DNA from: Candidatus Latescibacterota bacterium
GTDB taxonomy: Bacteria > Latescibacterota > UBA2968
Direction of reading: 5' to 3'
DNA: 64,000 nucleotides
Assembly: GCA_965205975.1 (NCBI GenBank)
Contig: OZ242195.1
Location: 128,001-192,000 of the forward strand
Within the stretch, counting starts at the first letter, position 1. Each line of letters begins with the position of its first letter. The position numbers and the translations under genes were made by a program. The notes under the pieces were generated by a model. It saw nothing but the letters and a program-made list of their open reading frames with translations, ran no database searches and was not told where the DNA came from. Of the stretch, positions 12,059 to 22,418 are shown one piece after another.

Positions 12059-12664
12059 TCAACGAAACTCCAAACTCGCCACAATTTGTTCATATTCGGT
12101 TAGTGGATAGCCTGCATCCCGGCTGCCATTGCCGATCATGTAATACCCCACCTGATTGTGGATGGCTATAGCTACCAGAAATCGGGTGCCGGGATAATCT
12201 CGATTGGATCTTTCCAGTTGAGAATAGCGAAATTCCCACTGAATCGCCTCGCCTACATTGAGCTGGATGCGCTGTTTTTCGTCGATAACGCGATATTGAT
12301 CAAATGCCCGCATTAGATATTGTTCTTCAAATTCCTGAACGATCTGATCCACTGTCATTGTGGCGAAGCGATCTGGTAGTGCTTGTGGGTACAAGTGCAT
12401 TTGCGGACGAAAGTCACTTGTAATCCCAGGGCTGAGAATGCGTACAGTTACAGGTGATAAACCATTGATATCTCTTTGTGATGTAAGGGTTGATACATCG
12501 ATACCCCACTGGTCGCTGGGACGACTGACTCGAAATCCCCATGAGTTGTTGGTATAAACAAGCCCGTCTAAACTGGGTTCAGGCTCTGTAGGGATTGGTT
12601 TACACCCAGAAGTTGCCAACAGGCTACACAGCGCGAAAGCGCAAAATATTCGGGCGCATATCAT
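12059..12664 (-). CDS. Putative lipoprotein (PsbP/Mog1-like fold possible)
   Basis: Lipobox-like LATSGC; 'YTNNSWGFRVSRP..W' and C-terminal 'YEQIVASLEF' resemble PsbP-like proteins. Confidence 0.6.
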   Translation of the reverse strand: MICARIFCAFALCSLLATSGCKPIPTEPEPSLDGLVYTNNSWGFRVSRPSDQWGIDVSTLTSQRDINGLSPVTVRILSPGITSDFRPQMHLYPQALPDRFATMTVDQIVQEFEEQYLMRAFDQYRVIDEKQRIQLNVGEAIQWEFRYSQLERSNRDYPGTRFLVAIAIHNQVGYYMIGNGSRDAGYPLTEYEQIVASLEFR

Positions 12665-12706
12665 GTCGATCTCCTCACTGATTAATCGCGAAAATGGACA
12701 AGTACT

Positions 12707-15610
12707 TTATTTGACGCCAGATGGCCTGGCAGTGTTCCTATCGCGTTGGAACAATTCCGGATGCAGGCGATAAAATGTCGATTCCACTTGATTCAGACCA
12801 TTGGCCTGTACCACAAAATGGCCATCGATTACTATAACTGGCAATATTGCTGGTATTATGCCGAGTGCTTGAGCAGTGGCAAATACTTCTGCCTTATTGT
12901 CTCTACCGATAGCTGCAATGCCCATCTGTTTTAAGCAATTTTCCACAGAAGATGTGTCGGAAGATGCCTTCTGCTTGTGGCAGAAAAGGAGATCAACTAT
13001 TCGCTCGGGTGCGACCTGTTGTGCCTGCCGAAATAGTGCGTTTTGTTTGTTATTGCCTACAAAATGCAGGCGCAAGCGTTCGGGGTCCTCGACTTTTTTT
13101 ATCCATTGCAAAAGGCGTTCCACTCTTTTTAGTGATTCGGATATGCTCACATCTAAGAACAGGTCCATACCCTCTATATCCCGCCCCTGAAAAATCCGAG
13201 TAATTGGCGTCATCTGCACAGTTGGCACAAAATGATCGCCAATGCGCTGTACGATATGCGAAAGGCGATTAAAACGGGCTGTTTGTTCAAATTTGCTATC
13301 CAGCACATAAGCTGGCACCCGATCCAGTTTATAATGTGCAATCAGGTTCTGTCCCATCTCGCTGTTCACATCCACGGTTTGAAACTCAGTACCGGGAAAG
13401 AGCGATAGTGTAGATCGAATAAACGAATAGGTATCACATACTGTACAGGTCGCGTCGTTGAGAATGGTCGTTTGAAAAGAGATGGGGTCGCGCACTTCGC
13501 ATTGCGCGTGGGGCGTTCCGCCATTTAAGCACAGGCCAACTTTGCCCGGATGTACACAATCCCGGTCGCTCAGACACTCGGGAACATCGGCGCAAAAAGG
13601 TAAATTTTTGCTATTGCGACATATCAGTTGCGCCACCTCCTGAGGAGAGGTTCTGACATCGCGCCCATTTACGCGCAATGTGGGCGATGCGTTAATTCCC
13701 AGCAGATTGGCTCGGCGAATATTTTCGGCAAATAGCGTTTCGCCCGCATCGCTTTCGGACAATTCGGCAATTTTGTCTGCGTCCATGTTTACCTCTTTTG
13801 CACAAGCGCGCCAATCGGTTGCAATGCCCGATTTATTGCGACACAAAATATAATCCCAGAACCGGTCGGGATAAAGCGACATTACCACGGTCTGCCGAAT
13901 GCCTTCGGCTATTTCTCTATCGCCGTGCAAACTGCGAAAGCGGCCCGATCCCGTCGAGGTCGTTGCTTTACATCCTGGCTCTGTTGTCTGTGTCGTGCGT
14001 GCGGCAGGGGTAGGCGATGCGACATCCTTTGCGCTCGCTTCATCTGCGATAAAATACAGATGAAAGTCGATTTGATCCTTCACTTTGCGAAACAGAGGGG
14101 CAAGGGTTTGTTCTGCATGTATGCCATAGGGACAATCTGCCATCACAAATAGCTCGACGAGAGGGCGACCATTTTGGCTATGTTCTGTTTCACCAGGCCC
14201 TGTGTCCGATTTAGTTATTGCGTGAGAAGAACCGTGTCCCTTGTGATTCACTTCTGCCAGCATATCGGCAAATCGGGTGTCAAAGTCGGGCGTCTGGTTT
14301 GCATCGTGACAGCGCTGGCACAAATCGGGAGATGGCGTGCGGCGAATATTGCGGACTTCGGGACGCCGTGCGTGTTGTTCTCCCGGCCCGTGGCACACTT
14401 CGCACTGTACATTTGTAAGTCGTTTGACATCTTTGCCAATTCGGAATCCCGTGGGATATCCAAATCCCGTGGTATGACAGGTTACACAGTCGGGCTGATA
14501 GTGTTTTTGTTTTTGCAACAAGCGATTAAATGCATTCGCATGATGTGACTGTTCCCAGTCCGCAACCTCGGCAGCATGGCATCCTTTACACGTCTCCCCC
14601 CCCACATATCTATTGGTGCCCTGACGCACCTGATCTTCCAGGGCAAAACCCGCAAATCTCGGTCGCGCCGTCTGCTGCAATGCCGAATTTTTTTGAACCA
14701 GATTGTAGAATTCATCCACGAGCCGTTTCACTGTGCGGTCTTCGCCAATGGATTCCGAGAGCAATATAGAGGTGATTTGTTCTGTTGTCACCCGTCCATT
14801 TTCTACGGTCAAGATAGCCTGCCCAATTGCCTTGCCCTGAGGCTGGATGCCCAACAGTAGAGTATTGCCAACCCGATGGGTTGTTTCAGTTGACCGCGCG
14901 CTGATCACAATATCTATATCGGCGATATGTTGTACGAGGTCGCGTTCTGCCTCTCGATCCAAATCGCTCAATACGACTATGAGATCGGTCTTTTGACGCA
15001 CAGATGCGACCGCTTCCCGGATGCCATCGAGGTTAACATCTATGCCATCGGGCATATTTATGTGTGAGCCCCCCATTGCCATACCGTGTACTTCAATCTC
15101 CCGTTCACCTGCCACACCTATAATACCTACGCGCACATCACCTGTATCCAAAATTTTCACGGGCGCACCCATTTGCACGCCATTTATCTTCAAGTTTGCA
15201 CTTACAAAAGGGACGCCACCCGAATCGCGCATGGTCTCAAAGAACGCTTGTCCAAACCGCAATTCTCCCACACCGACATTGGCAGCGTCGTAATGTATGG
15301 CTTTCATGGCTTTCAAATGTATTTTACAACGCAATTGGTCCAATACGGTATCGCCCGCAAATAAACCGCCAGCATCTAATAACAGGGCATTGGGATGCGA
15401 TTGCTTTAAGTCATTTACCATTGTTGCGCGCCGCGCAATGCCGCCGAGCTGATTGTCCGCGCAGCCACACACTTCCAGGAAGCTCTGAGTGTCTCCCGTG
15501 TAAAGCAATACCACCTCTGCCGCTCTACTTTGCCCGATGAGACTAAAGACAGCTAATAGGAGACACAAAACGAAGGTTGATTTTTCACATCTGTGTCTAT
15601 CTGCGTTCAT
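12707..15610 (-). CDS. Secreted multidomain redox protein: UshA-like (CGC) domain + tetraheme cytochrome c (c554-like) + DsbA/thioredoxin-like domains
   Basis: Signal peptide ending QSRA; EVCGC..QLGGIARRAT; four CxxCH (CKGCH, CVTCH, CEVCH, CQRCH); VELFVMADCPYG...SLHG; CTVC. The track start at 15667 lies inside a terminator hairpin, so ATG 15610 is preferred. Confidence 0.85.
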   Translation of the reverse strand: MNADRHRCEKSTFVLCLLLAVFSLIGQSRAAEVVLLYTGDTQSFLEVCGCADNQLGGIARRATMVNDLKQSHPNALLLDAGGLFAGDTVLDQLRCKIHLKAMKAIHYDAANVGVGELRFGQAFFETMRDSGGVPFVSANLKINGVQMGAPVKILDTGDVRVGIIGVAGEREIEVHGMAMGGSHINMPDGIDVNLDGIREAVASVRQKTDLIVVLSDLDREAERDLVQHIADIDIVISARSTETTHRVGNTLLLGIQPQGKAIGQAILTVENGRVTTEQITSILLSESIGEDRTVKRLVDEFYNLVQKNSALQQTARPRFAGFALEDQVRQGTNRYVGGETCKGCHAAEVADWEQSHHANAFNRLLQKQKHYQPDCVTCHTTGFGYPTGFRIGKDVKRLTNVQCEVCHGPGEQHARRPEVRNIRRTPSPDLCQRCHDANQTPDFDTRFADMLAEVNHKGHGSSHAITKSDTGPGETEHSQNGRPLVELFVMADCPYGIHAEQTLAPLFRKVKDQIDFHLYFIADEASAKDVASPTPAARTTQTTEPGCKATTSTGSGRFRSLHGDREIAEGIRQTVVMSLYPDRFWDYILCRNKSGIATDWRACAKEVNMDADKIAELSESDAGETLFAENIRRANLLGINASPTLRVNGRDVRTSPQEVAQLICRNSKNLPFCADVPECLSDRDCVHPGKVGLCLNGGTPHAQCEVRDPISFQTTILNDATCTVCDTYSFIRSTLSLFPGTEFQTVDVNSEMGQNLIAHYKLDRVPAYVLDSKFEQTARFNRLSHIVQRIGDHFVPTVQMTPITRIFQGRDIEGMDLFLDVSISESLKRVERLLQWIKKVEDPERLRLHFVGNNKQNALFRQAQQVAPERIVDLLFCHKQKASSDTSSVENCLKQMGIAAIGRDNKAEVFATAQALGIIPAILPVIVIDGHFVVQANGLNQVESTFYRLHPELFQRDRNTARPSGVK

Positions 15611-15644
15611 CTGCGGATGCTTTCTGTTTTCTGAATTTTGTCTG

Positions 15645-15675
15645 TAAAAAAAGGCCCGATATTTCATCGGGCCTT
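15645..15675 (-). terminator. Intrinsic terminator downstream of lepB
   Basis: Minus strand AAGGCCCGAT-GAAAT-ATCGGGCCTT followed by a T run. Confidence 0.75.
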
Positions 15676-15694
15676 ATAAATACCATTTTTTGGG

Positions 15695-16360
15695 TTATTC
15701 TAATAAGCCCAACCTGCTCCAACGAATTTTTTCAAAAATATTCCACAGAGGCTTTTGACTATCCCAGGAATAATAAATAAATAATGGGTGTGCTTTTACT
15801 TTCTCCATGGAGACCATCCCCCAAAATCGGCTGTCATAACTGCTGTCGCGATTGTCTCCCATTACAAAAATGTGTCCCGGTGGCACCGTGCGAGGTCCGT
15901 AGTTGTCGCGCGGGCTATGCTGTTTGTGTTCTACTCTGGGGTCTTCGTGCTTAACGCCTTCTGGATTTTCAAATCGCTTTCCATCTACATATACAATTTT
16001 GTTTTTGATTTCCACTGTTTGCCCTTCAACCGCAATACACCGCTTGATAAAATCTCGCGACTCATCCCGGGGGAATTCAAAAATCACCAGATCTCCCGGT
16101 TGAGGGGTTGAAAATCCCGGTACGCGAAATGAGGGCAATTTGGTATTCAGTATGGGCACGCGGTCGGGTATTTGCGTGCCAAAGGTCAGTTTATCGCCCA
16201 GTACGTAATCGCCTTCTAATAGCGTATCTTCCATCGAGCCCGAGGGAATGTGATACGCTTGCACCAGCGTTCCCCGGATCAAAATGGCTAAAAATATAGC
16301 GATTCCAAATTCTCGCAGCATGCTCCGTTTGCGCTTTTTTTTGATATTTCTTTTTAGCAT
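15695..16360 (-). CDS. lepB: Signal peptidase I
   Basis: IPSGSMEDTL (Ser), FIKRC (Lys), FVMGDNRDSSYDSRFWG. Confidence 0.96.
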   Translation of the reverse strand: MLKRNIKKKRKRSMLREFGIAIFLAILIRGTLVQAYHIPSGSMEDTLLEGDYVLGDKLTFGTQIPDRVPILNTKLPSFRVPGFSTPQPGDLVIFEFPRDESRDFIKRCIAVEGQTVEIKNKIVYVDGKRFENPEGVKHEDPRVEHKQHSPRDNYGPRTVPPGHIFVMGDNRDSSYDSRFWGMVSMEKVKAHPLFIYYSWDSQKPLWNIFEKIRWSRLGLLE

Positions 16361-20690: not shown

Positions 20691-21570
20691 ATGACTACCC
20701 ATTCCGACCTCACATTCATCACAAATGAAAAAGGCCAAAATCTTCTTGAGCGGTTTAAGGTGCTGATCAAAGACACAGAATTTTTTGATGTCCTCGTCGG
20801 CTATTTTTATACCAGTGGTTTCCACGCGCTTTATCGATCACTGGAGAGAACGAAAAAGATCAGAATTCTCATCGGTATCAGCACGAATAGGCAAACACTC
20901 AATCTGATTGAGCAGGCACGCCAGCAAGAGCTTCAATTTTCCCACGCGGAGACGAAGGAGCATTTTTCCGATCTACTTATTGGAGAGATGGCAAATGTTG
21001 AAGATAACAAGAAGGTTGAACAAGGAGTGACAAAGTTTTTGGAGTGGCTGAAAATCGGAAAGTTGGAGATTAAGGCGTATCCCACGGAGAATATCCATGC
21101 CAAGCTCTACATCATGTCTTTCGGTGAGGACGACCGTGACGTTGGGCGTGTGATCACCGGGTCGAGCAACTTCACGCAGTCCGGCCTGGTAGATAATCTT
21201 GAGTTCAATGTAGAACTCAAGATGCGCTCCGATTATGACTTTGCCAGGCAGAAGTTTGAATATCTCTGGGGAAATGCTGTTGATGTGAAAGATAAATATA
21301 TTGAGACCATTCAGAAAAACACATGGCTTAATAATGCTATTACTCCCTACGAGCTTTATCTCAAGTTTCTCTATGAATATTTCAAGGATGAGCTTCGCCA
21401 AACCGATGAAGTGATCTTCAAGTACATTCCAACGGGGTTTAAGCGACTGGAATATCAGGAACAGGCCGTCCTGAACGCAAAAAAGATTCTTGAAGAGTAC
21501 GGTGGGGTTTTTATTTCAGATGTCGTGGGACTTGGAAAAACTTATGTATCCGCCATGCTGGCAGGCCAAT
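20691..21570 (+). pseudogene. PLD-nuclease + SF2/SNF2-type helicase (restriction/defence-associated), truncated by IS3
   Basis: LVGYF, IHAKLY and GSSNFT..GL..NLEFN (PLD motifs), YQEQAV...DVVGLGKT (Walker A); the frame runs into the IS end at 21571 before any DEAH motif. Confidence 0.85.
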
Positions 21571-21645: not shown

Positions 21646-22107
21646 CTATCGGCGCATAGTAGGCGATGGAAGAATGCCTGCGATGCGGATTATACCATCC
21701 TTCCAAGTGGGTACATAAGTGATGTCAGCCACAGTGAGTTTATTGACCGTTGGCACAGTAAAGTCGCGCTTTACCAGATCAGGAGCCTTATCAGACCGTT
21801 GCGCCTTACGCGTCGTTTGCGTGCTCTTGCGGCGAGAAACGCCACAAATGCCCATCTCACGCATCAGACGCGCTACGCGCTTCTTACCTACAAGGATACC
21901 CATATCCATCAGGTCTTTAAAGATGCGAGGGGCACCATAGGTGCTATCTGATCGGGTATGAAAGGTCTTGATATGCTTCTTCAAGTCTGCATCAACCTTT
22001 GCTCGTTTAGAGGGTGGACCTGCTCGCCAGGCATAATACCCACTGAGGGAAACACCCAGGACTCGGCATTGCGTGGCGATAGGCCAAAGGGCCTGGTGCG
22101 CTTTCAC
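21646..22107 (-). pseudogene. IS3 transposase OrfB, catalytic core deleted
   Basis: CRVLGVS.SGYYAW, TYGAPRI, KRVARLM, ADITYVPT, then jumps out of frame into C-terminal WYNPHRRHSSIAY. Confidence 0.88.
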
Positions 22108-22418
22108 GAACGCGAAGATTTTCCAGGGATCGCGTCGGTCTCCGCTGCGAACCAGGCCGCTGCTTTTGACAATATCTCGCGCTCGATGCGCAACTGCTTA
22201 TTCTCACGTCGAAGACGACGTAACTCTTCGCGCTCATCGCTCTTCAGACCATCTTCTCGAAGGCCCTCATCTCGATCAGCCTGGCGTATCCAGTTTTGGA
22301 TCGTCTGAGCGGTTGGCTCAAACTCTTTGGCCAACTCGGATGGAGAGCGACCAGCGCGCACAAGCTCAACGATCTGGCGCTTCAACTCGGATGGATAAGG
22401 CGGACGTGTTGGTGGCAT
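22104..22418 (-). CDS. IS3 transposase OrfA
   Basis: YPSELKRQIVELV...LAKEF...TIQNW HTH and ELRRLRREN..L..EREILSKAAAWFA leucine zipper. Confidence 0.93.
   Translation of the reverse strand: MPPTRPPYPSELKRQIVELVRAGRSPSELAKEFEPTAQTIQNWIRQADRDEGLREDGLKSDEREELRRLRRENKQLRIEREILSKAAAWFAAETDAIPGKSSRS

Follow-up and report, generated by a model that had tools for sequence, protein, structure and literature searches.

The window analysed here, a 64-kb stretch of DNA from a Candidatus Latescibacterota bacterium, contains a 967-aa open reading frame (ORF) in which an UshA-like domain with a CGC motif, a c554-like tetraheme domain and a module of thioredoxin-fold domains are joined in one chain (coordinates follow window numbering unless a genome or locus is named). 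The fusion is real and is a single uninterrupted gene, and its architecture is a new variant form within a catalogued, functionally dark family. We consider it probable that the protein forms a relay between thiols and hemes, in one direction or the other, while the more specific reading, that it is a periplasmic single-chain thiol-disulfide:heme oxidoreductase which oxidises a limited set of envelope proteins, is put forward tentatively, at somewhat under an even chance. An earlier note, made from the sequence alone, had described a single fusion frame of about 970 residues, and had placed the CGC motif and the four CxxCH motifs exactly where they are given below; the CPYG and CTVC motifs that it named were confirmed as well. 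The features of the protein are:

12707..15610, minus strand: ORF of the fusion (967 aa), of uncertain start; the frame stays open up to 15667
15524..15610, minus strand: probable signal peptide of Sec type, with a basic N-region, a hydrophobic core and SRA-A (as judged by eye)
14681..15523, minus strand: UshA-like metallophosphoesterase fold with eroded metal site, without the 5'-nucleotidase C-terminal domain (NCBIfam, alignment, model and Foldseek)
15461..15469, minus strand: CGC motif (C48, C50) in VCGC...GGIARR; CGU (TGA) in relatives
14243..14608, minus strand: c554-like tetraheme domain with four CxxCH motifs and distal His candidates H357, H413 and H456 (Pfam, motifs, alignment)
14576-14590, 14474-14488, 14390-14404 and 14306-14320, minus strand: CxxCH heme motifs
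13646..14167, minus strand: GILT/DsbA-like domain 1 with monothiol CPYG (C493), SLHG motif, cis-Pro-type SPT loop and conserved C590/C603 (Pfam, fold match)
14123-14134, minus strand: CPYG active site (sequence motif)
13970..13972, minus strand: C547, in a variable low-confidence loop with a dip in predicted local confidence (pLDDT); invariant in 21/21 Latescibacterota-type loci
13499..13621, minus strand: six-Cys knot, probably three structural disulfides
13187..13477, minus strand: thioredoxin-fold domain with CxxC (CTVC, 13436-13447); CxxC in 35/35 full-length proteins
12761..13162, minus strand: degenerate second GILT-like domain, active-site Cys absent (comparison with relatives, model)

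Domains of the fusion protein

The fusion is conserved over its whole length in 34 database clusters (34 of the 39 matches cover at least 96% of the query, with 44-99% identity), and a single 3,382-nt contig from another public run (X8) spans positions 12426-15788. A chimeric assembly, named in the earlier note as a possible refutation, was rejected on these two grounds. The gene is single-copy in the 5.56-Mb, 98%-complete genome, a full-length match to its UshA-tetraheme part (hereafter the core) is present in 20/20 genomes of the host genus, and the nearest named relatives of the fusion are Candidatus Latescibacterota. Contigs X15 and X16 from RNA libraries also cover the fusion stretch, such contigs being no measure of transcription. 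The N-terminal sequence predicts export of the protein.

The best NCBIfam match was NF041198 (UshA_like_PCGU), with 260.9 bits over residues 15-271. As this is below the curated cut-off of 275, the core was treated as a close relative and not filed as an equivalog. The Pfam families c554, DSBA and GILT all scored above their cut-offs. Foldseek matched the N-terminal domain to the metal domain of CD73, UshA and SoxB with E about 1e-20, so that the calcineurin-like fold is present, and this domain is good in the AlphaFold model of the core. The metal site is lost, as the earlier note had read from the motifs: in the alignment with intact nucleotidase/SoxB-like references only D40 is retained among the eight metal and catalytic positions (DxH, DxGD, GNHE, H and GHxH), with the substitutions H42>Q, D82>G, N114>V, H115>G and H216>D and the further losses H239>R and H241>T (motif V registered by hand). 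D79 is kept in 73/74 covered family rows as the remnant of a metal pocket. The C-terminal substrate/nucleotide-binding domain gave no Pfam match in the fusion, and the tetraheme domain stands in its place. An active nucleotidase was rejected because of the loss of these seven residues.

The CGC motif is nearly invariant in the family, with C48 present in 72/72 and C50 or selenocysteine (Sec) in 71/72 covered rows (80 family rows). The search of homologues for in-frame TGA, suggested in the earlier note, was rewarded in four loci (L073, L075, L111 and L112), where Sec replaces C50. Sec in place of Cys is a mark of catalytic redox cysteines, and its use in relatives thus implies redox catalysis. 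The host genome itself encodes a tRNA-Sec (genome C1:3425281-3425378), though the fusion gene has Cys (TGC) at the Sec position.

The heme module scored 53.8 bits against Pfam c554 (PF13435; cut-off 20.8) and aligns with c554, of which two distal His are matched. The three distal His candidates are conserved in 171, 170 and 171 of 171 domains (a redundant set), while Gln439 occupies the position of the fourth candidate, where 97/171 domains have His. Of the His-containing linker described in the earlier note only H456, a probable distal heme ligand, is conserved, whereas H459 and H463 vary. Heme 2 is an open site in c554 and OcwA according to the part of 10.1101/641308 covered, and on this analogy heme 2 of the window protein may be open as well. 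The heme domain has low confidence in the AlphaFold model of the core, and the CGC-heme distance from this model is not usable. The module resembles cytochrome c554 (1BVB) and hemes 1-4 of OcwA (6I5B) in its four CxxCH motifs with c554-like spacing, but differs in being a module of about 120 aa within a multidomain protein, with no hydroxylamine-oxidation genes recognised nearby.

The C-terminal half was modelled well (pLDDT 86.6), with the order GILT-like (CPYG), Cys knot, thioredoxin (CxxC) and degenerate GILT-like. Pfam DSBA was above its cut-off, as was GILT (PF03227, 23.3 bits vs 22.4). The best fold match of the module was mouse GILT (6NWX, TM 0.71-0.74), followed by DsbA and VSR1; over the target, GILT, DsbA/BdbD and the VSR1 thioredoxin-like domain gave TM 0.71-0.76. 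A CxxC active site is the canonical feature of GILT and DsbA; it is missing from GILT/DsbA-like domain 1, which has CPYG instead, and among 189 related sites 160 are CxxG and only one is CxxC. The third thioredoxin-like unit of the earlier note indeed lacks the Cys motif, and its identity could be refined to a degenerate second GILT-like domain, since stand-alone relatives of the module carry two full FVMSxCPYG repeats. Poribacteria forms are without the C547 loop and have a Cys tail at the end instead (GTPC in 27/29, a similar Cys in the other two); C547 or this tail could, judging from the sequences, act as resolving or shuttle cysteine. The likeness to GILT, DsbA/BdbD, VSR1 and prokaryotic FVMSxCPYG...SLHG proteins is one of fold, the window protein differing in its monothiol CxxG, its tandem GILT-knot-thioredoxin-GILT arrangement and the fused heme core. 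The GILT-like module family comprises 3,566 clusters at E<=1e-3, with Atlas neighbours from Woesearchaeota, Myxococcota and Elusimicrobiota, and the fusion points to a large, little-studied prokaryotic GILT-like family.

Module fusions and the association with dsbA

The CGC-heme core is recurrently fused or adjacent to DsbA/GILT-type domains. Among the best 80 of 528 confirmed core loci, the full thioredoxin module was present in 19 loci and the GILT domain only in 29 Poribacteria ORFs; the core is also common alone, or stands behind an M61-peptidase-like domain without HExxH. The thioredoxin module occurs alone in L016 and L017, and 144 new top matches to the thioredoxin/GILT module included seven with UshA and heme, 12 with UshA only and seven with heme only, a group that may include truncated proteins, so that every pairwise fusion of the three modules occurs. 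In a quick tree of 94 rows, from which 38 near-redundant loci had been dropped, supported branches separate three clades (that of the window, the heme-less UshA-GILT one and the dsbA-linked one) over an unresolved backbone. The thioredoxin link thus recurs in three distinct regions of the tree of UshA domains, which does not prove independent origins. The M61-peptidase-like domain without HExxH is about 480 aa long and precedes the UshA-CGC-tetraheme part in one clade of several phyla (L054:990-3770, L058:4540-7326 and L070:4465-7320). UshA-like genes without hemes occur as tandem paralogues, with CGU or CGC motifs, in L117:5611-7690, L120:4804-6857, L119 and L127, where they follow mreBCD-pbp-rodA-like genes or an Mrp-like ATPase.

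The association with dsbA comes from a sample of 51 Nitrospinota genomes (the phylum of G121, a Nitrospina), of which 46 contain the core, there as a stand-alone UshA-tetraheme protein. In all of the 30 loci fetched, which were the 30 best-scoring, a dsbA gene with CGHC lies directly downstream on the same strand. VKOR and DsbB were each found in 1/51 genomes, and this was the same genome, G142, in which the search for the core gave no match. MauE matches were found in 22/51, of which 14 have the CxCFG motif; none of DsbB, VKOR and CxC-MauE was found in 33 of the 46 core carriers. Similarly, neither DsbB nor VKOR was found in six Poribacteria genomes with the UshA-heme-GILT form, and their one MauE match was partial and without the CxC motif. 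The surveyed genomes were mostly metagenome-assembled genomes and their kin, and not found does not therefore equal absent. A 2026 preprint reports MauE as a third DsbA oxidase, with a CxC active site, and 20.1% of 20,704 species as being without DsbB, VKOR and MauE, and concludes that further oxidative-folding routes must exist (10.64898/2026.03.05.709764, in the part covered).

A proposed thiol-heme relay and its alternatives

For the window protein we propose that substrate thiols would exchange with the thioredoxin-fold cysteines (CTVC or CPYG, with C547 as resolving or shuttle cysteine), which would be re-oxidised by the CGC pair; a CGC cysteine would contact heme 2 and hand its electrons to it, and the heme chain would pass them via periplasmic cytochromes to oxygen. 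The CGC, CxxCH, CPYG and CxxC motifs are conserved. The order, from substrate over CxxC/CPYG, CGC and heme 2 to the other hemes and the cytochrome pool, is inferred, as is the putative Cys-heme contact at heme 2. The oxidising direction is presumed, and is favoured on thermodynamic grounds and by the gap in known oxidases in the Nitrospinota. Ccm genes are present in the host genome, and its ORFs were read as including an alternative complex III and a cytochrome oxidase. The earlier note had imagined a single-chain wire coupling thiol/disulfide or metal(loid)-thiol chemistry to hemes: the thiol/disulfide part gains support from the pairwise fusions, the Nitrospinota dsbA loci and the Sec forms, whereas nothing specific was found for the metal(loid) option.

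A broader and more doubtful extension is that bacteria have in the UshA-CxC(U)-tetraheme core a fourth disulfide route after DsbB, VKOR and MauE, a soluble one, which would re-oxidise DsbA-type proteins via the Cys/Sec-heme contact and the cytochrome c pool and not via quinone, with DsbA as its partner across the Nitrospinota and the window protein as an all-in-one, QSOX-like form. The core would share with DsbB, VKOR and MauE the re-oxidation of a DsbA-type protein, as proposed from genomic context, and with MauE the CxC site; however, these are four-helix membrane proteins using quinone, whereas the window protein is predicted to be soluble and heme-based, gives soluble alpha/beta models and no such Pfam match, and coexists with them in many genomes. 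QSOX also combines thioredoxin and cofactor domains in one chain and passes electrons to O2 (PMC12561257), and in the Mia40-Erv1-cytochrome c system shuttle disulfides pass electrons to cytochrome c via Erv1 (PMC7318334; both as far as these sources were covered), but the window protein has no Erv/ALR or FAD domain match, its folds are unrelated and hemes replace the FAD, which makes it a functional analogue only.

The UshA-like family has been listed among marine selenoproteins ('COG0737 UshA-like, CxU') since 2008 (PMC2398784) and is also listed in PMC13188914, in the parts of these sources covered, and the earlier note was right to describe it as uncharacterised. The window protein shares with NF041198 the nucleotidase fold with CxC/CxU before GGxxRR, and differs in its score below the 275 cut-off, its Cys form and an extension of about 510 residues that holds the three thioredoxin-fold domains. 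The literature, of which that on selenoprotein families and on MauE distribution was covered in part, gave no account of the fusion architecture or its function and no tested function for the UshA-like CxU family. The fusion and the Nitrospinota dsbA operon now give this family a testable job. If the proposal is true, the protein would represent a new type of enzyme, a soluble thiol oxidase that works with hemes, allowing membrane-free disulfide formation and filling part of the 20.1% gap; even in reverse, so direct a link between c-type hemes and the disulfide chemistry of proteins would be uncommon.

Several observations weigh against oxidation by such a relay, or against a general role for it. 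The host genome, in which DsbB and VKOR were not found, has two MauE genes with a CGCFG motif, so that no DsbA oxidase is missing there, and the idea of a host genome without any DsbA oxidase was rejected. In the host phylum, with carriers defined by a core match of E<=1e-70 reaching the heme part, DsbB or VKOR is present in 12/37 core carriers vs 18/84 non-carriers, and in 12/17 carriers outside the host genus; strict replacement of DsbB/VKOR across the phylum was rejected on the co-occurrence in these 12 carriers. The core was found in 7/81 Nitrospirota genomes, of which only one has an adjacent dsbA (G123), and this genome has DsbB, while the Nitrospinota contrast depends on a single genome with DsbB and VKOR. 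The fraction of predicted exported proteins with an even number of cysteines, obtained with a crude signal-peptide predictor, was 31/37 (0.84) in the control, 1.2 Mb of E. coli K-12, but 66/157 (0.42) in the host genome, which is no bias, and 26/51 (0.51) in 1.6 of the 3.3 Mb of Nitrospinota G131, a weak trace at most. Given the working control, a proteome-wide Dsb role is unlikely in the host, and proteome-wide disulfide formation was rejected, as neither the first crude runs nor the controlled run gave a sign of it. In addition, the existence of heme-less UshA-CxC(U) and UshA-GILT proteins means that the hemes are dispensable for the job of some members, two full-length relatives no longer have an intact CGC motif (CGF in L014, none in L015), and the frequent His at the Gln439 position suggests that many relatives may have bis-His ligation at heme 2.

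In fold, the C-terminal module is closest to GILT, a reductase, and the same relay could run in reverse, from a quinol/cytochrome pool through the hemes to CGC and the GILT-like domain, for disulfide reduction or isomerisation, either unfolding scavenged proteins before proteolysis or repairing oxidised envelope cysteines. We regard this as unlikely, even if the monothiol active sites, the absence of even-cysteine bias, the co-occurrence with DsbB, VKOR or MauE and the M61-peptidase-like domain without HExxH that replaces the thioredoxins in other family members would all fit with it. In an aerobe, electrons from c-type hemes would have to go uphill to reduce disulfides, the host genome already has a DsbD-type protein for the supply of reductant, and the Nitrospinota dsbA genes are mostly without a known oxidase. 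Distinctly less probable is a small-molecule sulfur or selenium enzyme, in which polysulfide, persulfide or selenite would be the substrate of the Cys/Sec of CGC(U) at heme 2, with sulfane sulfur carried or recycled by the thioredoxin modules. In its favour, the fold is shared with SoxB, which works on Cys-bound sulfur, and Sec forms exist; against it, nearly all genomes of the Nitrospinota sample carry the core, Nitrospinota being mainly nitrite oxidisers, and no sulfur-metabolism genes were recognised among the conserved neighbours. The model for such an enzyme is MccSep/ExtKL (NF040886), as MccSep is a multiheme cytochrome c with catalytic heme-ligating Cys and Sec at heme 2, but it has five hemes and an Ig-like domain and is a polysulfide reductase of anaerobes (PMC13510729, in the part covered), whereas the window protein has four hemes and is not homologous beyond the heme motifs (12.4 bits, cut-off 250).

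The modules may also be independent of each other and fused for co-export only. The first would then be a residual phosphoesterase or a scaffold without catalysis, the second a cytochrome that carries electrons, and the third a chaperone or an isomerase of disulfides. Each module is indeed also found alone, the two relatives with damaged or lost CGC would fit such a loose union, and the model gives no inter-domain geometry; the eroded metal site, the absent nucleotide-binding domain, the recurrence of the thioredoxin link in three parts of the tree and the redox catalysis implied by Sec nevertheless make this reading about as improbable as a sulfur enzyme, or slightly more so. Least probable of all is a role in metal or metalloid handling, with the CGC and thioredoxin cysteines binding Cu, Hg or As and the hemes altering its oxidation state: vicinal cysteines do lie next to the remnant metal pocket with D79, and arsC-like genes (own reading) are near two loci (L042 and L117), but no conserved metal-resistance neighbourhood was present in 80 + 30 + 20 loci, and the link with dsbA is much stronger.

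Gene start and neighbourhood

Three further features flank the fusion gene:

15695..16360, minus strand: signal peptidase I, upstream; beside the fusion in 7 loci including the window
15651..15675, minus strand: terminator-like hairpin, 3' of the upstream signal peptidase I gene; overlaps ATG 15667, which lies in its loop
12059..12664, minus strand: probable lipoprotein, downstream and co-oriented; adjacent to the fusion in 14 loci, the one in the window among them; no Pfam match

The start of the fusion ORF is uncertain between ATG 15610 and the upstream alternative ATG 15667, since the latter lies in the hairpin loop and the former within a dispersed short palindromic repeat (15585-15623), which overlaps the first part of the signal-peptide sequence in frame. 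A 22-mer of this repeat has 52 genome copies at <=2 mismatches, and loose contig ends pile up at the repeat. A promoter scan gave matches at chance level (5 vs 6.4).

The nearest neighbours are predicted peptidases of envelope proteins, which we count in favour of the oxidation of envelope proteins by the fusion: besides the signal peptidase I gene of the window, these are an A24 prepilin-peptidase-like gene that immediately precedes the UshA-heme-GILT gene in 28 Poribacteria loci (e.g. L043:4615-5754, plus strand), and a CtpA-like protease gene (own reading) that follows dsbA in Nitrospinota loci. The Atlas neighbours of the downstream lipoprotein are unnamed clusters (0.96), with PsbP as the nearest named one (0.94), and its PsbP-like character is a lead only. 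In L111:931-7923 and L112:4580-11455 a CGU core gene stands between a BCP-like peroxiredoxin gene and a cytochrome c maturation cluster.

Elsewhere in the host genome, a MauE domain is joined to a thioredoxin-like domain with CxxC (L172:988-1911, genome C1 about 1524 kb), and a 746-aa protein (genome C1:2491717-2493957, minus strand), the only Thioredoxin_4 match of the genome, has two DsbA-like domains (CAYC and CPYS) and a C-terminal CG tail. Three genes for octaheme cytochromes, of which two are neighbours, lie at genome C1:3035274-3039439 and 1924661-1926880. In the window itself, IS3-like transposase ORFs (21646-22418, minus strand) break a helicase/phospholipase-D-like gene starting at 20691, as judged by eye.

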